The position numbers were made by a program, and so were the translations under genes. The notes under the pieces were generated by a model. That model did not search any database. It saw nothing but the letters and a program-made list of their open reading frames with translations, and was not told where the DNA came from. DNA of 64,000 nt, taken from an uncultured Alphaproteobacteria bacterium (GTDB lineage: Bacteria > Pseudomonadota > Alphaproteobacteria > Paracaedibacterales > JAKBAR01). Positions 2,916 through 56,782 of the stretch are shown piece by piece. The stretch lies in the NCBI GenBank assembly GCA_937896365.1, contig CALBMH010000060.1, positions 1,200 through 65,199 on the forward strand, read 5' to 3'. Each line of letters starts with the position of its first letter. Within the stretch, counting starts at the first letter, position 1.

Positions 2916-3992
2916 ATGAAAAAGAGGATTTTAATCACATCGGTGGCATTCGCATTCGTACTGTCAACAGGTTTATCATGGGCTTCAGACAGTATAAAAA
3001 TAGATACTGTCTCAGAAGACGTATTGCCAGATCAGACAGATCAGAAAAAAAAACTTGCCACATGGAGTCTTTTTCATGAGGGGGTGAGCGTGATGCTTAA
3101 ACACGCAGAAAAACAGAGTAAAAATAGCACTAGTCATGTTGAAGAATTAAAGTCTCAGCTGAGGGATGTTGAAGAGGAAAGTGATAAATTAAAACAAAAA
3201 TTTCAGCTTTATCAGAGGGTAGGGAATGCATGCAGTCTTTATGAGCAACTCGATAACATTTGTGGGGGGATACAAAAAGAGTTAGAAAAATGGAGTATAA
3301 GCCAAAACGATTCAAGTCATGCAACTAGTTTGTACAAGAGTGCTTCCGCTCTTTATACGTTACTTGTGATGTCAAGTATTTCTACACCTGCTCCTTTTGG
3401 TAAGGGAAACTATGACGTAAGTCCATTTGGTTCGAAGGCCTCTTTTTTAACAGTTGGGGAGTCTCATCTCTTTATTCCTGGTTCACGTATTGCCTCAGTA
3501 AAAAAACAGACTATCGATATTATCCATACGCGTGAAAATGAGGTTTCTTATTGGACTCTCTCGAATGGTTTTAAAGTTGGGATAAATAGTGTGGATGATA
3601 CAGTAACGATTGACGGATCAAGTACTAATGTTATCTCTTTTAAGGATAGTTCAACACTTATCCTATTTCCATCAAACAAGCGGGGTATTTTCAATAATCT
3701 GGAAAAAGAGGGTGAAGAAAAAGCTCAAGTTGATTGTTCAAAAGCGGCACAAGGAATTGCGGTATCTTATGCTCTAAGTGATGTAAAAACAGAAGAGCTC
3801 ACAGTGAATGTTCCTGGAACGATTTTGTCTGGTGTTAAGGTTATTTGTGATAATGTGAGGAAATTAGATGCGGTTGGGCAGTTGGCGCCTGTTTATAAGC
3901 TCGTGTGCGATGGTGTCGCGCAAGTGAGGAAGGATATTATGAGTGCCCTTGAAAAAGCACAAACAATAGTGAAGACTTATGAAAAAATGTAG
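2916..3992 (+). CDS. Hypothetical secreted protein with coiled-coil segment
   Basis: 358-aa ORF. Sec-type signal peptide MKKRILITSVAFAFVLSTGLSWA; heptad-like charged stretch HVEELKSQLRDVEEESDKLKQKFQLYQ; followed by a strong terminator. I recognise no family. Confidence 0.6.
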   Translation: MKKRILITSVAFAFVLSTGLSWASDSIKIDTVSEDVLPDQTDQKKKLATWSLFHEGVSVMLKHAEKQSKNSTSHVEELKSQLRDVEEESDKLKQKFQLYQRVGNACSLYEQLDNICGGIQKELEKWSISQNDSSHATSLYKSASALYTLLVMSSISTPAPFGKGNYDVSPFGSKASFLTVGESHLFIPGSRIASVKKQTIDIIHTRENEVSYWTLSNGFKVGINSVDDTVTIDGSSTNVISFKDSSTLILFPSNKRGIFNNLEKEGEEKAQVDCSKAAQGIAVSYALSDVKTEELTVNVPGTILSGVKVICDNVRKLDAVGQLAPVYKLVCDGVAQVRKDIMSALEKAQTIVKTYEKM

Positions 3993-5383: not shown

Positions 5384-6310
5384 ATGAAAAAAATTCTTTT
5401 GCCTTTAATGCTTTCTCTTTTCTCAACAAGTGTATTTGCTATGATTCAAAATGATGAGCAAGAGGTTTCTACACAAGAGATTTCCAAAGCAGATGCTCCT
5501 AAAAAAAGGATGAGCTGGCGCGAACAACTTCCTAGCAACCTTATCATTCATAATTTGCCTGCGAATAAAAAGCATACATTTAAAGTCACAGGCACGATTG
5601 TAGCGGACAGTCAAGAAACCCCCTTTAGTGTTGATAAGATTGAAGCTGTTTCGGCAACGACAACGGGCATCATGTGGGTAAAGCGTACAGATATTCTTAA
5701 CACTATTCAAAGTCTTCGTCTCTTTAAAAAGATTTATGGTTTAGAAGAACATCAATCCCGTATTACATCTCTTAGTGTTCTTTCTGTAGAGTATGAAGGG
5801 AATTCTGTTTCTTATACCGTTAACGAGAAAGAAAAAATCCCCTATGTTTTAAAATATGTTCAGCCAGAAAAACAAAAAGTGCAACTTGTGTCTGGTGTAA
5901 ATCCTCGATATAGTATCCTAAAAAATCAATTATCCGCTGATCACTTTTTCTTTCATTGCCAGCCTAGCTTAGATAATTATAACCTAAGAATAGACTTTGA
6001 CATAATGAAAGATGATAAACCTGTGGGGTCGAGTTTTATCGAAATTATCTCTCAAGGTGGTGCTGTGCTTTTTTCAGTTAGTGCTGAAGATATTATTTTC
6101 AAAATAACGGATGAAAGCATCATTAAATCTTTTTTCAATACATATGATCGTATGCCTTCTCTAATCTTAAAATCATATGTCCTCTCTTGTGGAAAAATCT
6201 CTAGCTACGGTCATCTGTTTTCGTTCAGCGAAAAGAAGAGGGGTCCCAATTCCCAATTTCACTCCTTATTAAATGTTGTTAATGAAAATCATATATCATA
6301 TAAATATTAA
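5384..6310 (+). CDS. Hypothetical secreted protein (orphan)
   Basis: 308-aa ORF with signal peptide MKKILLPLMLSLFSTSVFA. Followed by a 43-bp terminator module that recurs after the next gene. No family recognised. Confidence 0.6.
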   Translation: MKKILLPLMLSLFSTSVFAMIQNDEQEVSTQEISKADAPKKRMSWREQLPSNLIIHNLPANKKHTFKVTGTIVADSQETPFSVDKIEAVSATTTGIMWVKRTDILNTIQSLRLFKKIYGLEEHQSRITSLSVLSVEYEGNSVSYTVNEKEKIPYVLKYVQPEKQKVQLVSGVNPRYSILKNQLSADHFFFHCQPSLDNYNLRIDFDIMKDDKPVGSSFIEIISQGGAVLFSVSAEDIIFKITDESIIKSFFNTYDRMPSLILKSYVLSCGKISSYGHLFSFSEKKRGPNSQFHSLLNVVNENHISYKY

Positions 6311-6472: not shown

Positions 6473-7042
6473 ATGAAAAAACTATCTTTATTTTTAATGT
6501 CATCTTTTGTGGCAACAGCTTCTATGGCGATGCAAGACAGTGCCTTAGAGGGAGATTCTGTGCAACAACAAACTCTTTCTCCAACTTATGAGCGCGTTAT
6601 TTCAGGACAGGAAGATTTTACCTTTAAACTAAACACTCATTACGTTAATTCTCTCCCTATAAAGGTTTCTTTTACAGGGGTTTTGTCTGCTGGAGATAGA
6701 AAAGAAACTTTTGATATTAATTTTAATCATAATGTATCTTTAGCTAAAGATACACCTCTTACTCTTACAGGCGCCCAGATTATTTCATCAGCGGATCTTA
6801 GATCAGGGGATTTTATGTCTGATTGGGCAATAAAACCAACCATTCTTGCTGAAGCTTTGGCGAAACAAATCACCCCAAAACTAGAACTTCACTCCATAAA
6901 TATTCGTGTTAATGTTTACAATGGCTATAATACTTTTACATCTGCCTTTTCAGAAAACTTTTATCAAAACTCTTATTCTTTTGATATCAATGGAAAATTA
7001 GAAGGTTCTTCTATGGAAGAAAAAAAGGTTAGATATTCTTAA
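6473..7042 (+). CDS. Hypothetical secreted protein (orphan, possibly a distant paralogue of 5384..6310)
   Basis: 189-aa ORF with signal peptide MKKLSLFLMSSFVATASMA. The segment VSFTGVLSAGDRKETFDIN resembles FKVTGTIVADSQETPFSVD in the upstream protein. It carries the same 43-bp 3' module. Confidence 0.6.
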   Translation: MKKLSLFLMSSFVATASMAMQDSALEGDSVQQQTLSPTYERVISGQEDFTFKLNTHYVNSLPIKVSFTGVLSAGDRKETFDINFNHNVSLAKDTPLTLTGAQIISSADLRSGDFMSDWAIKPTILAEALAKQITPKLELHSINIRVNVYNGYNTFTSAFSENFYQNSYSFDINGKLEGSSMEEKKVRYS

Positions 7043-47647: not shown

Positions 47648-49585
47648 TTACTTTTGCTCTGGCTCCTTTTTACCTGTTTCCCTTTTTTTTGTAAACGCCC
47701 CCGTTGTGCTGTCCGTCGTCGTGGTAGAGGTGGAGGTGGTGGATGTTGTCGTTGAAGACTTTGATGCTTTCGCTGGGGGAGTAATCGAGTATATCTTCAC
47801 ACTTCCAGTGGTTTTCACAGGGGCTGTGGGTGCCGCCCTCTTCAGAGGAGACGACAGCTTCGTTGTTATCGTTGAAGGCTTAGAGGTTGTTGTTGTGGAT
47901 GTCACTGTGGTTGAAGGTTCAAGGTCAGATATTTTTTTCTTCTGGTCTTCGTCAAGTTTGACCTTGTCACCGAAAATCTCAACAAGCTGTTTGAGACCAA
48001 TATATCCACCTTCATTATAGTCTGCTTTTAGATTAGAAGCACCTTTCAGGACGAGGGATTGCAAGCTATTTTGCAGGTCTTTTATGGATGCCGGAAGCGT
48101 TTCTAAGGACTTACTGTCTGAAAGATCAAGAGTTCTTAAAGATGTGAGCTTATTAATTTCTTTTGGTAGCCGTTTAAACCCACTACGGTGTAGCTTAAGT
48201 TTTTCTAGGAGAGAGTTATTCAGACTCGAAGAATGCAAGAACATATACAGCTGGTATAGATCTTCTACAGCCCAACCCTCACTGCGAATCTCTACTGTAG
48301 GAAAGGCCCAGAAGTTTTCTGTGTTGATGATCTGGCGAACAATACCCCATAGCTTTTCTTCTTTTTTATCCCCGGTATGTCTGAGGTTCTGCTTATCCGT
48401 GGATAGTATCCATGCATTGGGAGTCATATCGACCTTAAGATAGTTTTGAGCAGCAGCCTCCTGAAATTTCTTAAGTTTTTCTCCCATGCTTTTGAGAAAT
48501 TCTTTCCTTGTTTCTTTATTAAACATGTAGATAGGATAGTCACGAAAGAACTGCGTCGCGACCCTCTTAAGGCTTGGGTACAGATCAGAAGGGTAATAGA
48601 AATGCTCTGTCTTCTCCATTGCTTTAAATATTCCAAGAGAATAATATGGCATTCCTTTAATATTACGTCCTTGGATTTCTTCCAAAGGGACATCGCTTAT
48701 GAAAGAATCTAGGCCCTCATTTCTCGATTTTTCGAAACCTTTTGCTAGACCCTCTTCGATTGTTTTCTTTTCTTTCTTTATATACTCAATATTCTTATTA
48801 ATCTGCTCTTTTATTTTATTTATCTCTTTTTCTAATGAATCTATACTTGCCTCATGAGTCTTTTTAATCTCTTCTTTTTTCGTACGAGCCCACTTTTCCG
48901 TGACTGCTTTCAATTCTTTAATGTGATCTGCTTGATCTTTCTCTAGAGTTTTCTTCTGCTCGTCTGTAAGGAGGAGGTGGGAAGGCGTGAGAAATTGGGG
49001 TCTTTCCTTTAACGTATCAATGGATTTTAGTTCTTCTTCCAAATTATCATCAATGGATTTTAGTTGTTTCTTATAATGCTGGTTCATAAGGTTTAACTGT
49101 TCTTCTGCATTCAAAGAAGATTCTTTCCACACCTTTTTTATCTTATGTTTATGATGCTCAAGAGAGGTAAGTCTGGAATCAAGATCTTCCAGGAAATTAT
49201 AGGAAGGGTCATCAAGAGCATCCAGAAGAACGAACAAATCATGGAGAACGCGAACGTGGGAATTATTCTCTAATGCATCTAGTGTAAACCCAAATGTATC
49301 CCCATCCTCCTCCTGAACGTCTGTTGCAATGTCATATACGGCGCGAAGCATGACAGTCAGCTCTTCTTCGGTGGGAGGACGGTCCAAGATTCTTTTTGGA
49401 TCCTCCCCTCCGGTTAGAAGATCAAAAATTTTTTGTGATCGTTCAAGAGAGTTATTCTGTGTTTTCTTTGTTGCTAAAATCTCTTCTAATGCAACACACC
49501 CACCACTCATCTGTTCTGCAACTGATTTTGATTTGGCACTACCAAGCAGTAACAAAAGCACTAAACAAGATATCTTTAATTTCAT
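47648..49585 (-). CDS. Secreted coiled-coil / leucine-rich-repeat protein with Thr/Ser-rich C-terminal tail
   Basis: 645 aa. Signal peptide MKLKISCLVLLLLLGSAKS; long K/E-rich helical region; LRR-like FKRLPKEINKLTSLRTLDLSDSKSLETLPASIKDLQNSLQSLVL; tail TTVTSTTTTSKPSTITT...STTTSTTSTSTTTTDSTT. Confidence 0.7.
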   Translation of the reverse strand: MKLKISCLVLLLLLGSAKSKSVAEQMSGGCVALEEILATKKTQNNSLERSQKIFDLLTGGEDPKRILDRPPTEEELTVMLRAVYDIATDVQEEDGDTFGFTLDALENNSHVRVLHDLFVLLDALDDPSYNFLEDLDSRLTSLEHHKHKIKKVWKESSLNAEEQLNLMNQHYKKQLKSIDDNLEEELKSIDTLKERPQFLTPSHLLLTDEQKKTLEKDQADHIKELKAVTEKWARTKKEEIKKTHEASIDSLEKEINKIKEQINKNIEYIKKEKKTIEEGLAKGFEKSRNEGLDSFISDVPLEEIQGRNIKGMPYYSLGIFKAMEKTEHFYYPSDLYPSLKRVATQFFRDYPIYMFNKETRKEFLKSMGEKLKKFQEAAAQNYLKVDMTPNAWILSTDKQNLRHTGDKKEEKLWGIVRQIINTENFWAFPTVEIRSEGWAVEDLYQLYMFLHSSSLNNSLLEKLKLHRSGFKRLPKEINKLTSLRTLDLSDSKSLETLPASIKDLQNSLQSLVLKGASNLKADYNEGGYIGLKQLVEIFGDKVKLDEDQKKKISDLEPSTTVTSTTTTSKPSTITTKLSSPLKRAAPTAPVKTTGSVKIYSITPPAKASKSSTTTSTTSTSTTTTDSTTGAFTKKRETGKKEPEQK

Positions 49586-51431: not shown

Positions 51432-51507
51432 TAAATAACTTGATTTTTTAGTTATATTGTTTTACATATTCTGACGTTAAGAAAAACTAATATAAGGATA
51501 GTCCATA

Positions 51508-52737
51508 ATGAAAAAATTAAGTTTACTTCTTGCTTCTTGCTTCTTGCTTCTTGCTTCTTCTGGCATGGTATATGCTTCCACAACGAAAACAGGCGATGCG
51601 CGATTCAATAGCTCTCTATTTAACGCTGAATCTGCAGATTTTTCTAGAATGGAGACAATTAAAACATGGGTTGCTGATAAGTATCATAATCAGACCTCGA
51701 TCATGAAGAAAGTTCAAGGTGACGTGGCGATGACTGTCCCTCAGAATCCTTTTTCGTCACATTTTGCTGAGCCCATTGTTAACAATAAGGGTGACACACG
51801 TTACTTTGGGAAAACGTTTCATACACTGAGTGCGATTGAGCTTCCTTTCCTTCAATATGTGAAGCAGATTAGCCAGACAAGATCGCCTGTGACACTTGAA
51901 ATTGCTGCTTCTATGGGGCTTGTTTCATGGAAAGTTCCTTTCTGCTTTCAAAATGGAGGAATACACTATGCCAATGAGCTGAGCAAGATAGTGTTGGATC
52001 AACGGTTCGAGCCAGTGGTTAATAGTCGTTTAGGTCATGCGAACCTCACAAAACATCTGACCTCTCTCCAGGGCGATTGTTTTACAGTACTTGATCATCT
52101 CAAAGGTAAAGTGGATGCACTCTACGTTCAGAATTTGCAGCACTTTTTCAATCCAATAACCAATGATAAATTTATGCACCTTGTTAATGATCTTCTCGCG
52201 CCTGGCGGCCGTGCGTATCTATCTGCCCACAGCTTTTTATTCCAAGACACAGAAGATGCATTGTACAAGCTTTATTGCAAGCAAAAAAAGGGGAGCGATA
52301 AATATCCTGGATTTGTCCAGTATGATGTTCAGTTTACAAATATTTTAGGGACTGAGCAGGGGCTTGAGCACACAATAACAAATCCTATACGACCAGCAGA
52401 TGATGCCCTTATTACAAAAGTAGACAAGCTAGATTCTGATAAATGCGGGGTTTTTAATGCCTTTGTTAATAACCAAGTTGTACAAGTAAAGACGCGTAAA
52501 CAAAACGTTGTTTCCAATCATTTTTCACCAACAATTTATCAAAGAACAATTGCTGATTTTCCTACACTCATCCACAAGGACTCATTCTTTATAACACAAG
52601 AAGGTGAGAGGAAAAAAGGATGGGATTGGAAAGGGAAGATTTCCCACGCAGCAGCGATTGTGGAGAAGGTTGCAGTGCCAGCGCCCGTTGCGGTAACTAC
52701 CACGACGACGACCGCTACGACCGTAAATACCCACTGA
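51508..52737 (+). CDS. Hypothetical secreted protein with weak methyltransferase-fold motifs and Thr-rich tail
   Basis: 409 aa. Signal peptide MKKLSLLLASCFLLLASSGMVYA. VTLEIAASMG, DALYVQNLQHFFNP and LLAPGGRAYLS loosely resemble class I MTase motifs I, IV and the PGG motif. The C-terminus is VAVTTTTTTATTVNTH. Confidence 0.55.
   Translation: MKKLSLLLASCFLLLASSGMVYASTTKTGDARFNSSLFNAESADFSRMETIKTWVADKYHNQTSIMKKVQGDVAMTVPQNPFSSHFAEPIVNNKGDTRYFGKTFHTLSAIELPFLQYVKQISQTRSPVTLEIAASMGLVSWKVPFCFQNGGIHYANELSKIVLDQRFEPVVNSRLGHANLTKHLTSLQGDCFTVLDHLKGKVDALYVQNLQHFFNPITNDKFMHLVNDLLAPGGRAYLSAHSFLFQDTEDALYKLYCKQKKGSDKYPGFVQYDVQFTNILGTEQGLEHTITNPIRPADDALITKVDKLDSDKCGVFNAFVNNQVVQVKTRKQNVVSNHFSPTIYQRTIADFPTLIHKDSFFITQEGERKKGWDWKGKISHAAAIVEKVAVPAPVAVTTTTTTATTVNTH
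51526..51560 (+). repeat. Heptanucleotide tandem repeat (CTTCTTG x4 plus CTTCTTC) inside the signal-peptide coding region
   Basis: Units at 51526, 51533, 51540 and 51547 are perfect; the unit at 51554 matches 6 of 7. The unit length is not a multiple of 3. Confidence 0.95.
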
Positions 52738-52748
52738 TGCTGCAAGTC

Positions 52749-52790
52749 GTCTTCTGGATGAAGCTTTCGATGCGGTCTTCTGGATGAAGC
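52749..52790. repeat. 16-bp direct repeat, period 26 bp, in a convergent intergenic region
   Basis: gtcttctggatgaagc occurs at 52749-52764 and again at 52775-52790. Confidence 0.9.
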
Positions 52791-52824
52791 ACTAACACGC
52801 TGCTTTGGGGAGGGGGGTTCCCAT

Positions 52825-53292
52825 TTATTTGATTGGGTGGGTACCATGATCTTTGGAATAGGTTTCCTCCCCGTCTTTGTTGTAATGGGACCAAGGACCT
52901 ATCTTACAGTGATGATGATAGGTCCCCTCAATGGCTATGGATCCGTCAGGATGGTAACTTTTAAATGCCCCATGCATGGTACCTTGGTGAAAAGTTTCCT
53001 GCTGAACAACGGTGCCGTTCTCATCGTAATGATAGCGCTCACCTTGTAGATGGCCTTCGTGATGATACATCGTGCTTTGAATATGACCGCTTGGGTGATA
53101 GGTTGAAGCAGGGCCGTGCAGCTTTCCTTTATGATAAGTTGCTTTGAAGATGAGGAGCCCATTACTATAGTATGTTCCTTCTCCTTCTAACTCGTTCTTC
53201 TCATTGAGCCATAAGCGGGCTGAGAGGCGCCCATGGTCATCATAGGTCAAATGTTCTCTAAGACTTCCTGTGTGTGCGCGTGAATGGCTCAT
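52825..53292 (-). CDS. His-rich MORN-variant (YwqK-like) repeat protein
   Basis: 155 aa with repeating G..(Y/F)H..G.(L/M)HG....YH..G units. There are 21 His by my count. The start lies 4 nt after the vgrG stop. Confidence 0.7.
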   Translation of the reverse strand: MSHSRAHTGSLREHLTYDDHGRLSARLWLNEKNELEGEGTYYSNGLLIFKATYHKGKLHGPASTYHPSGHIQSTMYHHEGHLQGERYHYDENGTVVQQETFHQGTMHGAFKSYHPDGSIAIEGTYHHHCKIGPWSHYNKDGEETYSKDHGTHPIK

Positions 53293-53296
53293 TAGC

Positions 53297-55435
53297 TTAA
53301 TTAATCATTGTCATAGAACCTTTGAGTGTGAGCATAGCACCTGCTGTAAATTCCCCTGCAGCGTCAGCCTTAACAGTGGTAAGTGTACCTTGGACGGTCA
53401 TCGCTGTATCCGCTTTCACAGTCGTTGTCGCTCCTTTTATCACCATGGCCGCATTGGCTTTAAACTCTCCTTGGGTTTGCGCTTCAATGGTAACACTTCT
53501 CCCCTTGAGCGTTAGATCACCTGTAGCTTGGATAGCAATAGCATCGGTTGCTTTTAGGTTAATCGATTGGGAAGTTAGGGTGATATTGTGGCCAATGGCT
53601 TCAATAAGAATGTTTCCATCATCCAGTTTAAGCGTAAAGTTGCCACTTTTTAAGTGTATGGCCTTGTCACCTTTGTCAACAGTAAGTGTGACATTGCCTT
53701 TTTGAAGGGTTGTTGACTGATCGCCTTCTTTGAGAGTGACCACACGATTCCCTTTATCCAACGTAATTAGATGATCACCTTTTACCATGTGGAGGGCATG
53801 GGTGGGAAGGTTATCGCCTTTAGCCTCATGGGTGAGGAGATAGTTTCCTTTTGTCATTGTCTTGGTCTCGTTACCCTCGTGAACAATGAGTGTGCGATCA
53901 CCTTTCATTACTTCTTGGTCGTAGTCTTTTTGTGCACGGATATACAGCTGTTCATTGTCTTTTTTGTCCTCGAAGCGAATTTCGTTGAAGGCATCTGTTG
54001 CATCCTTGGTGCTATTCGTTTTGAGTGTACTCTTTGTTTTGTCATCGGGAAGAGGGTAAGGGGGCTTGTTGTTGCCATTGTAGACGCATCCAACAACCAC
54101 AGGCCTGTCTGGATCTCCTTCAAAAAAGCTAACGATGACTTCCATGCCAATGCGAGGTATGAAGACAGATCCCCATTGTGATCCACTCCACAGCTGAGCT
54201 ACCCGAATCCAGCATGAGCTGTGATCATCGTTCGCACCGCGTTGATCCCAATAGAATTGTACTTTTATGCGACCAAACTCATCTGTATGAATCTCTTCTC
54301 CACTAGGCCCAACAACGATACCCATCTGATTGCTATGAATACGTGGTTTAGGTTTGAGATCAGGACGGTAGGGAACATTCACGGGGAAGCACGAAAAGCG
54401 ATTGGAGTAGACAACGTTACTGTTGGGGCGGAAATCGAGGAAATGCTCCACTTCATAAAGAACGTATTCAGCATTTGCATCCTCTCGAGGATGATTTTTA
54501 AGCGTAAATCTTATTCCTGGCATCATAGCGGGTACGGTACTTTTGCCGTAGAACATTTTCTTATTCCACTCAAGCTGCTCAATTTGAATCTGGTTAAGAC
54601 TTTCTCCTATCTTCATTTTGAAGAAGTTTCCAGGATAGCGATAAACCTCACCACCGTTGCCCTCCCCAGAGGTTTTAGGATAAAGTTTCGTATCAGGGGT
54701 TGTAAAATCGTAATCGGCGAGAGTTGATTTCTTGCTGACAACGCGCTGCTCAAGATGGAATTCTTGGATGCTATCGCCCCAGACACCGCTTACTTTTTTT
54801 GGAAAAAAAGGAACCGATGAGGGCGTTAAGGTACTCAACTTTGATACATCATCATGAACAACGAGTGTATCGCCACGAGGGCTGTGCAAAAAATAATAGA
54901 AAATCCCTTCTTCAGCCCACAACCGTGTTATAAAATCAAAGGCGCTTTCGCCATATTGGACACAGTACGACCGTATGAACATTCCCTTGGCAGATGCGCT
55001 GTAATCGACGTCACTCACGCCGTACTCTTCTAATAGAACCTTACACATATCGGTAGCGGATTTATTTTGGAACGCTCGATAATCTTGGTTAAAGCGCGTC
55101 ATTCCTAATTTGGGGAAAAGCTTTAGGATATAATGGGAAAATCCCGTTTCATCTTCTGTGATCCCTTGTCTTACTTCCCCAATGATGCCTGAAAAATAGC
55201 GTTCTTTGTCTTTATTATACTCAAATTTTACACTGGCAGGCTTTCCAACAAGGCTTGAAAGGTCAATATCCTTGGTTTTACTATGGGCTTCCACTGTCAC
55301 TTCAAAGAGCGTGCTAAGGCGCTCAGTGGCGTGGACACGATCCACGATTAATTTATTGGCGCCAAGCGGTGTTGTGAATTTGACGCTAAGTCTTTCCTCC
55401 TTCTCAGCGAGAGAAACAACCACTGGTATTAACAA
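53297..55435 (-). CDS. vgrG: Type VI secretion spike protein VgrG (no C-terminal toxin extension)
   Basis: 712 aa. N-terminal gp27-like region; gp5 OB-fold FYWDQRG..SCWIRVAQLWSGSQWGSVFIPRIGMEVIVSFFEGDPDRPVVVGCVYNG; C-terminal beta-helix repeats (LKSGNFTLKLDDGNILIEA..). It ends ..LKGSMTMIN. Confidence 0.92.
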   Translation of the reverse strand: MLIPVVVSLAEKEERLSVKFTTPLGANKLIVDRVHATERLSTLFEVTVEAHSKTKDIDLSSLVGKPASVKFEYNKDKERYFSGIIGEVRQGITEDETGFSHYILKLFPKLGMTRFNQDYRAFQNKSATDMCKVLLEEYGVSDVDYSASAKGMFIRSYCVQYGESAFDFITRLWAEEGIFYYFLHSPRGDTLVVHDDVSKLSTLTPSSVPFFPKKVSGVWGDSIQEFHLEQRVVSKKSTLADYDFTTPDTKLYPKTSGEGNGGEVYRYPGNFFKMKIGESLNQIQIEQLEWNKKMFYGKSTVPAMMPGIRFTLKNHPREDANAEYVLYEVEHFLDFRPNSNVVYSNRFSCFPVNVPYRPDLKPKPRIHSNQMGIVVGPSGEEIHTDEFGRIKVQFYWDQRGANDDHSSCWIRVAQLWSGSQWGSVFIPRIGMEVIVSFFEGDPDRPVVVGCVYNGNNKPPYPLPDDKTKSTLKTNSTKDATDAFNEIRFEDKKDNEQLYIRAQKDYDQEVMKGDRTLIVHEGNETKTMTKGNYLLTHEAKGDNLPTHALHMVKGDHLITLDKGNRVVTLKEGDQSTTLQKGNVTLTVDKGDKAIHLKSGNFTLKLDDGNILIEAIGHNITLTSQSINLKATDAIAIQATGDLTLKGRSVTIEAQTQGEFKANAAMVIKGATTTVKADTAMTVQGTLTTVKADAAGEFTAGAMLTLKGSMTMIN

Positions 55436-55759: not shown

Positions 55760-56782
55760 ATGCGAAAAATACTCCTTTTTTCAACAATATTAAGTACGAT
55801 AACATGCCTCACAGCACAAGATATTCCTTTTGAGGCTTACAAAGCCAAAGTGAGGGAACAAAGGTCTGATAAAGCGAGCTTTCTCAAAAAGGATAAAATG
55901 AAGATAAAGAGGCGCTCTTCTCCGAGAAAAATGACGCTTTGGACGCAATATTATTATGCTCGTTTTAAGGATCGTATGGGTGTCACACCACTGCGTGGTC
56001 AATATAACTACGAGTTCCTTGGCGCACACTATAAAGTGAAACCGTGGCTGCACTTAGGTGGGTTTTTTACTCTTTCGCAGAGTTACAGCAAAAAGACTTC
56101 TCCTTATACAAGTACTTTTGGTGTGAGGCAGGAAATTGCTGCACGTGCACGGCTCTACGAAGTCGGGTTTAATCCTTATCTTGGGTGGCAAGCTACAAAG
56201 CATTTCTATATTGACGCAACCTTTGGTGTGTATTATGGCAATAACAAAGTGCAGAGAAACCTAGCTGATGCCAATGCAGGCGGGGAGAATCCAACACCCC
56301 CAGAAACAACGACCATAGCAACGCCAAAATCCCATCGTCTGTCAGGAGGCCTATTTGTCACTTATACGCGCCCTTTCAAAAAAGTCTATATTCAAGGGCA
56401 ATTTGGATATAACCATTCAACCATTAAACGTTATGGTTATCAAATAAGAGGTACCTTTACAGATCCTGCTGAGAGCGTGGGTAGGAAAACATTTGTTATC
56501 GGGACGCTAAGCGGCATAGCCCGCTTCGGGTATCTGAGTAGTATTCATATGAATCCTTATATCGAGGTAGGAGCGAATACCTATACGAATAAGGTTGAGT
56601 ATCTGCAAGAAACTCTTACAGAGTCACCAAGAAAACGCAATCCCTGGGGATATATGATTGGGGCAGGGATTCGATTTTCTTCCAAAAAGGGCCTCAGTTC
56701 TGGTATCTATGCGAGACAGTATCAAGGACATACGCGCCTAAAATCCAATATATTTGCTGTGGACTTGAATGTTTCATTATAA
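55760..56782 (+). CDS. Outer-membrane beta-barrel protein (autotransporter beta-domain-like, no passenger)
   Basis: 340 aa. Signal peptide MRKILLFSTILSTITCLTA, then alternating aromatic/Gly beta-strand pattern (YEVGFNPYLGW, FYIDATFGVYYG, LSGGLFVTY, YIQGQFGYNH, GYMIGAGIRF). Confidence 0.5.
   Translation: MRKILLFSTILSTITCLTAQDIPFEAYKAKVREQRSDKASFLKKDKMKIKRRSSPRKMTLWTQYYYARFKDRMGVTPLRGQYNYEFLGAHYKVKPWLHLGGFFTLSQSYSKKTSPYTSTFGVRQEIAARARLYEVGFNPYLGWQATKHFYIDATFGVYYGNNKVQRNLADANAGGENPTPPETTTIATPKSHRLSGGLFVTYTRPFKKVYIQGQFGYNHSTIKRYGYQIRGTFTDPAESVGRKTFVIGTLSGIARFGYLSSIHMNPYIEVGANTYTNKVEYLQETLTESPRKRNPWGYMIGAGIRFSSKKGLSSGIYARQYQGHTRLKSNIFAVDLNVSL

Follow-up and report, generated by a model that had tools for sequence, protein, structure and literature searches.

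Does a heptanucleotide repeat inside the signal-peptide codons of a secreted-protein gene serve as a slipped-strand switch for that gene? The locus that raises this question lies in a 64-kb stretch of DNA (here called the window, i.e., all 64,000 nucleotides that were analyzed), in which tandem copies of CTTCTTG begin only a few codons after the start codon of a 409-amino-acid (aa) protein. A previous sequence-only reading of the window had proposed the repeat as a candidate for phase variation. Our analysis supports that proposal in part; the array is a real repeat made by slippage and a credible candidate for phase variation.

The array and its reading frame

The array, its gene (here called the host gene), and the features immediately downstream are as follows.

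51494 to 51498, + strand: AAGGA, a Shine-Dalgarno-like motif spaced 9 nt from the ATG at 51508 (direct reading)
51508 to 52737, + strand: host gene, 409 aa, with a Sec-type signal peptide, an uncharacterized domain predicted to have a class I S-adenosylmethionine (SAM)-methyltransferase fold, and a Thr-rich C-terminal tail
51508 to 51576, + strand: signal-peptide codons 1 to 23, MKKLSLLLASCFLLLASSGMVYA (sequence reading and homolog N termini)
51526 to 51559, + strand: heptanucleotide array, four CTTCTTG units plus CTTCTT, 4.9 perfect units (direct reading and Tandem Repeats Finder)
52806 to 52823, + strand: terminator-like hairpin with a T-rich tail behind it, in the gap that separates the host gene from the convergent MORN gene
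52825 to 53292, - strand: MORN-repeat protein, 155 aa, 5 nt downstream of the VgrG gene
53297 to 55435, - strand: VgrG gene with Phage_GPD, Phage_base_V, and Gp5_trimer_C domains

Direct reading of the sequence gave four perfect CTTCTTG units (51526 to 51553) followed by CTTCTTC (51554 to 51560), the C at position 51560 standing in place of G and setting the end of the array. Tandem Repeats Finder reported the same repeat (51526 to 51559; period, 7; 4.9 copies; 100% matches), and its score of 68 was the top repeat score of the whole 64-kb window. These results confirm the original description of the repeat, i.e., four perfect units and one imperfect unit covering codons 7 to 18 of the open reading frame (ORF) at 51508 to 52737.

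The sequence-only reading had cautioned that a signal peptide rich in Leu, Ala, and Ser can produce such a repeat by chance. In favor of an origin as a chance by-product of peptide composition and codon bias, CTT is the Leu codon used most often (35%) and the signal peptide has a low-complexity sequence. However, the probability of the observed codons given the peptide LLASCFLLLASS was 2.3e-7 (calculated from the codon usage of 23 long ORFs of the same window), and the codons of the array include the minority choices TGC (36%) and TTC (24%). The perfect self-match at lag 7 extended over 27 nt, while no other lag between 1 and 12 gave a match longer than 11 nt in the whole 64 kb. The 14-mer CTTCTTGCTTCTTG, with at most one mismatch, had four matches in the window, all of them within the array (0.09 expected), and this count was equaled in none of 100 shuffles. 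An internal control for codon choice in signal peptides is provided by the ORF at 6473 to 7042 (+ strand), which encodes a 189-aa secreted protein beginning with MKKLSLFLMSSFVATASMA followed by MQDS; its first six residues (MKKLSL) match those of the host protein, and its DNA is free of any repeat. The chance explanation is thus effectively refuted, and the caveat fails with it. The periodicity belongs to the DNA and is not explained by the peptide, and the array was therefore made by slippage; its perfection suggests recent or continuing turnover.

The array lies in coding sequence. The AAGGA before the ATG at 51508 and the signal peptides of the full-length homologs, all of which begin with M-x-K-K and a hydrophobic stretch, indicate that the start codon is right and that the array is not part of a 5' untranslated region. 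The N terminus of the host protein (MKKLSLLLASCFLLLASSGMVYA followed by STTK) is a typical Sec signal peptide, the hydrophobic core of which is built mostly by the array, and cleavage probably occurs after VYA according to the -3/-1 rule. The idea that the array pairs with the Shine-Dalgarno region of the transcript was rejected, since the fold of 51470 to 51590 (z-score, +1.25) was no stabler than those of shuffled sequences. A scan of the 76-nt gap upstream of the gene revealed no sigma-70 promoter; the host gene may be cotranscribed with the lysyl-tRNA synthetase gene or driven by a weak promoter.

Since the unit is 7 nt long, the gain or loss of a single unit breaks the reading frame. We simulated the allele products in silico, counting full units and adding the terminal CTTCTT. 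Alleles with 1, 4, or 7 full units were the only ones to keep the frame from the ATG, with products of 402, 409, and 416 aa and signal peptides of 16, 23, and 30 residues, respectively, while out-of-frame alleles overall yielded peptides of 29 to 77 aa. The present allele (4 units) encodes 409 aa; loss of one unit (3 units) leaves 63 aa, and gain of one unit (5 units) leaves 36 aa. The predictions that a change of one unit would shift the frame and truncate the protein and that a change of three units would alter the hydrophobic core by seven residues are both borne out in silico, the latter by the addition or removal of the residues LLASCFL. Read across its three frames, CTTCTTG spells L-L-A-S-C-F-L (one frame spells L-A-S-C), so that each in-frame length stays hydrophobic.

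Our best explanation, in which we place moderate confidence, is that the array is a working, slippage-prone ON/OFF switch of the host gene. A slipped-strand microsatellite would have arisen in the source lineage within the codons of the Sec signal-peptide hydrophobic core, and the gene, predicted to encode an exported methyltransferase-fold protein, is currently in frame (i.e., ON). A replication slip of one 7-nt unit would place the ATG out of frame and yield a 36- or 63-aa peptide without the enzyme domain (i.e., OFF). A further slip would restore the frame, making the switch reversible and stochastic, with a low to moderate frequency, and the 1-, 4-, and 7-unit states would all keep a plausible signal peptide (16, 23, or 30 residues). 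We infer both an appreciable slip rate at the host locus itself and the usefulness of switching to the organism.

The in-frame lengths also invite a different reading, in which three-unit steps of LLASCFL tune the length of the signal peptide and thereby export efficiency or localization. In one variant, 7 units are predicted to create a canonical lipobox (L-A-S-C at Cys18). The series of 16-, 23-, and 30-residue signal peptides and the L-A-S-C frame are in line with such tuning, and the number of in-frame heptamers can tune protein activity in neuO (PMC13001214). Single-unit slips are nevertheless the usual kind, and a single-unit slip is what we saw in the palsa_971 genome described below; a three-unit change requires either intermediate OFF states or a slip of several units at once, which is rarer. 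We consider length tuning improbable.

The host protein, its relatives, and its neighborhood

Searches of Pfam, NCBIfam, and PDB sequences with the host protein gave no matches. An AlphaFold model based on 23 homologs (pLDDT, 86.9; pTM, 0.84; low confidence at residues 12 to 28) was used for a fold search, and nearly all of the top 50 PDB matches were class I SAM-dependent methyltransferases (E values down to 1e-8; probability, 1.00; target-normalized TM scores, 0.45 to 0.63). The model and its PDB matches thus have a Rossmann-like methyltransferase fold in common, and we predict that the host protein represents an uncharacterized family with a class I methyltransferase fold. At the site where motif I is expected (by inferred placement), the family conserves E-I-A-A-S-x-G rather than GxGxG, so that methyltransferase activity stays a prediction. 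One distant family member carries PF08242. Some members of the family are fused to ankyrin repeats, a hint that the family may take part in interaction with hosts.

The host protein has only one exact copy in a collection of 5.8 billion clustered proteins, and the next relatives showed at most 48% identity. The best named relatives belong to Candidatus Odyssella acanthamoebae, a metagenome-assembled genome (MAG) of Paracaedibacteraceae, and alphaproteobacterial MAGs. Judging only from these names, the source organism is likely a relative of amoeba symbionts. A literature search found no papers mentioning both Paracaedibacter and phase variation.

Neither a heptamer repeat nor a remnant of one was present in the two homologs that were read at the DNA level (P0010 and P0002). 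In the host protein, 40 residues precede a conserved Glu, while its homologs of simple architecture mostly have 33 to 36 (range, 26 to 40), which places its N terminus among the longest of this set. This length would fit the addition, in this lineage only, of seven residues (three units) to a 1.9-unit seed. Two or more slips would be needed for such a gain, probably by way of out-of-frame alleles.

Other alleles of the locus were sought in public data. Outside the window, the gene turned up on a single contig (ENA ERZ650258; 3.5 kb), which matches the window at 100% identity over 3,514 nt, and the three assemblies or sources with the gene, which probably represent the same sample, give identical proteins. 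An OFF allele would be called from an internal start and would join the 90% identity cluster of the host protein; the cluster has one member, and no such allele is there. JGI metagenomes yielded no matches to the locus, either with both flanks separated by a gap of 20 to 50 nt or with the right flank alone, and the window contains no paralogs of the host gene. The source is probably a metagenome assembly, and the second contig has about 3.6x coverage according to its record name, so an assembly or sequencing artifact deserves consideration. However, the 34-nt array is shorter than a read, it is identical in two separate assemblies, and the ORF runs through it intact and in frame; we regard an artifact as very improbable.

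The neighbors of the host gene are a gene for a class I lysyl-tRNA synthetase, a gene for a secreted leucine-rich-repeat protein, and the MORN-repeat gene, which follows the VgrG gene and whose product is possibly a cargo or adaptor of type VI secretion. In the gap from the host stop codon to the convergent MORN gene, immediately ahead of the hairpin at 52806 to 52823, the perfect 16-nt direct repeat GTCTTCTGGATGAAGC occurs at 52749 to 52764 and at 52775 to 52790 (26 nt apart). Thr/Ser-rich tails end both the 645-aa secreted leucine-rich-repeat protein (47648 to 49585, - strand; TTTSTTSTSTTTT...) and the host protein (52680 to 52737, + strand; TTTTTTATTVNTH), and they may be a shared linker or modification region. 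Farther away, a small autotransporter beta-domain ORF lies at 55760 to 56782. A long block of same-strand genes from about 21000 to 44000 has a G+C content of 0.36 to 0.41 (0.42 to 0.47 elsewhere in the window); its contents include two asparagine-synthase-like genes and a phosphoenolpyruvate (PEP)-utilizing enzyme, and the block may be a surface-polysaccharide cluster.

CTTCTTG arrays in other genomes

A search of 185,579 species genomes for three CTTCTTG units listed more than 120 loci from many phyla, all of them in organisms other than the source. Arrays of 3 to 15 units were widespread among the matches listed, and most of them sat outside credible genes. One Vicinamibacterales MAG carried arrays on at least nine contigs (L009, L013, L015, L031, L038, L042, L045, L105, and L109), and further loci were found in Okeania, Microcoleus, and Flavobacterium; these loci look like a dispersed heptamer-repeat family. 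A set of apparently N-terminal arrays in high-G+C genomes (L002, L007, L032, L045, L081, and L113) seemed to belong to spurious antisense ORFs and was left uncounted. Among the matches listed, at least three arrays in sense orientation lie in the signal-peptide codons of real genes, and these belong to three other phyla. They are given here by contig position, together with the second allele of one of them.

3709 to 3739 (L027): Nitrospinae multihaem cytochrome c, 4.4 units
817 to 846 (L083): Anaerolineae family-5 solute-binding protein, 4.3 units
5650 to 5800, - strand (L076): 1185-aa Bacteroidota protein (MAG palsa_971), about 5 units
1466 to 1540 (L124 and L125): 4-unit allele of the palsa_971 array

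The palsa_971 array is polymorphic, with 5 units in L076 and L126 and 4 units in L124 and L125. When aligned with L076, L124 and L125 each showed a single 7-nt gap, located in the array, and no mismatches over 6,516 and 5,493 nt, respectively. Translation from the ATG gives 1185 aa at 5 units (ON) and 37 aa at 4 units (OFF); four contigs have the ON form, and three have the OFF form. The corresponding protein cluster holds two N-terminal forms, i.e., the 1185-aa protein, which starts with MKTNYEFKILASCFLLLASCYSFAQ and ends with ...VRAFF, and a 1171-aa protein called from a TTG inside the array. The 1185-aa protein had no Pfam or NCBIfam match. These alleles show that a CTTCTTG array of 4 to 5 units in a signal peptide slips by one unit in nature and toggles its gene. 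The 1171-aa form suggests that gene callers hide OFF alleles by picking alternative starts inside the repeat, such as this TTG. The earlier concern that about five units are few for high-frequency slippage is weakened by the 4- and 5-unit alleles of palsa_971. Against a switch at the host locus, 4.9 units lie at the low end of characterized switches.

The same comparisons bear on whether the array at the host locus is an incidental, effectively static microsatellite. According to this explanation, a few past slips expanded a two-unit seed where changes of length are tolerated, and the array now mutates too rarely, and without selection, to act as a switch. Several observations point in this direction and against the ON/OFF switch. 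The array has only 4.9 units and is the sole repeat of its kind in the window, where the self-match scan at lags 1 to 12 revealed no second contingency-type repeat and no sign of a phasome; the remaining simple repeats in the 64 kb are A/T runs of 8 to 9 and one (AAG)4. The Nitrospinae cytochrome array (4.4 units) is identical in 27 contigs. The repeat-free DNA of the homologs P0010 and P0002 and the position of most other listed arrays outside credible genes agree with a static repeat as well. On the other side stand the perfection of the array, with the turnover that it suggests, and the palsa_971 array, a 4- to 5-unit repeat of the same heptamer that varies with no other difference in 6.5 kb. 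We judge a static microsatellite to be a substantial possibility, yet doubtful.

A broader reading is that the host locus is one of a recurrent, cross-phylum class of CTTCTTG contingency repeats in signal peptides, with array length additionally deciding between soluble and lipid-anchored export. Because L-L-A-S-C-F-L is spelled over the three frames, every in-frame length would, in this reading, be a working signal peptide, and the L-A-S-C of one frame is the lipobox. We regard this combined proposal as unlikely; if it were true, switching of this kind would occur in environmental and endosymbiotic bacteria beyond the classic pathogens. As for the ON/OFF switch itself, if the array slips, the locus would represent repeat-driven phase variation of an exported methyltransferase-fold protein. 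The recurrence of CTTCTTG in signal peptides of three other phyla, together with the palsa_971 polymorphism, suggests that uncultured environmental bacteria may use short repeats compatible with signal peptides as a switching device that has been overlooked.

Comparison with known phase-variation systems

Surveys of putative phase-variable repeats have used a cutoff of at least three units for unit lengths of 6 to 9 nt (PMC2651432; PMC5953494), and the host array, with 4.9 units, lies above it. The array is a perfect tandem repeat in the 5' coding region, and its unit length is not a multiple of three. The genome of Haemophilus influenzae Rd is without a heptamer repeat of at least three units (PMC2651432).

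The opa genes of Neisseria carry CTCTT pentamers as coding repeats in the leader-peptide region, where slipped-strand mispairing occurs (PMC3960869; bioRxiv 10.1101/2020.09.16.300947). Like opa, the host gene has a pyrimidine-rich repeat, with a unit length that is not a multiple of three, inside the signal-peptide codons of an exported protein, and the number of units decides (in silico for the host gene) whether the ATG and the mature protein share a reading frame. The unit differs, however (7 nt, CTTCTTG, versus 5 nt, CTCTT), and the host gene is a single locus rather than a member of a gene family, with a predicted methyltransferase fold in place of the Opa beta-barrel. Among opa genes, those with 1 to 4 repeats were scored as nonvariable and the variable ones had 5 to 24 (PMC5953494), compared with 4.9 units in the host array. 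With a unit other than CTCTT, the host locus lies outside the Opa family and would be opa-like only in its working.

A heptanucleotide (AAGACTC) occurs in the 5' coding region of neuO in Escherichia coli K1, which is ON when the number of units is divisible by three, with every three units adding seven N-terminal residues (PMC13001214). Array size in neuO varies between 3 and 53 units (most commonly 20), and measured switching gave 93% ON and 2 to 5% neighboring lengths (PMC13001214). The host array resembles that of neuO in being a heptamer in the 5' coding region that permits a full-length protein only at fitting unit numbers (in silico for the host gene). Unlike the host array, the repeats of neuO, a phage-borne gene, encode a cytoplasmic N-terminal extension and not a signal peptide. 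Heptamers are also accepted as mediators of phase variation at hmw1a and hmw2a of H. influenzae and in Neisseria (CATTTCT) (PMC2651432; PMC5953494). The hmw heptamers, unlike the host array, are promoter repeats situated about 100 bp upstream, where they affect transcription, and their arrays are longer (13 to 38 units).

Another close parallel is the palsa_971 array, which shares the CTTCTTG unit, a size of 4 to 5 units, and a position in the hydrophobic core of a signal peptide (MKTNYEFKILASCFLLLASC...). It belongs to an unrelated phylum and an unrelated protein, and the ON/OFF polymorphism was seen in palsa_971 only. The host locus thus stands outside the opa and neuO families and, if it works by the mechanism proposed here, would be another case of a repeat-driven translational switch.
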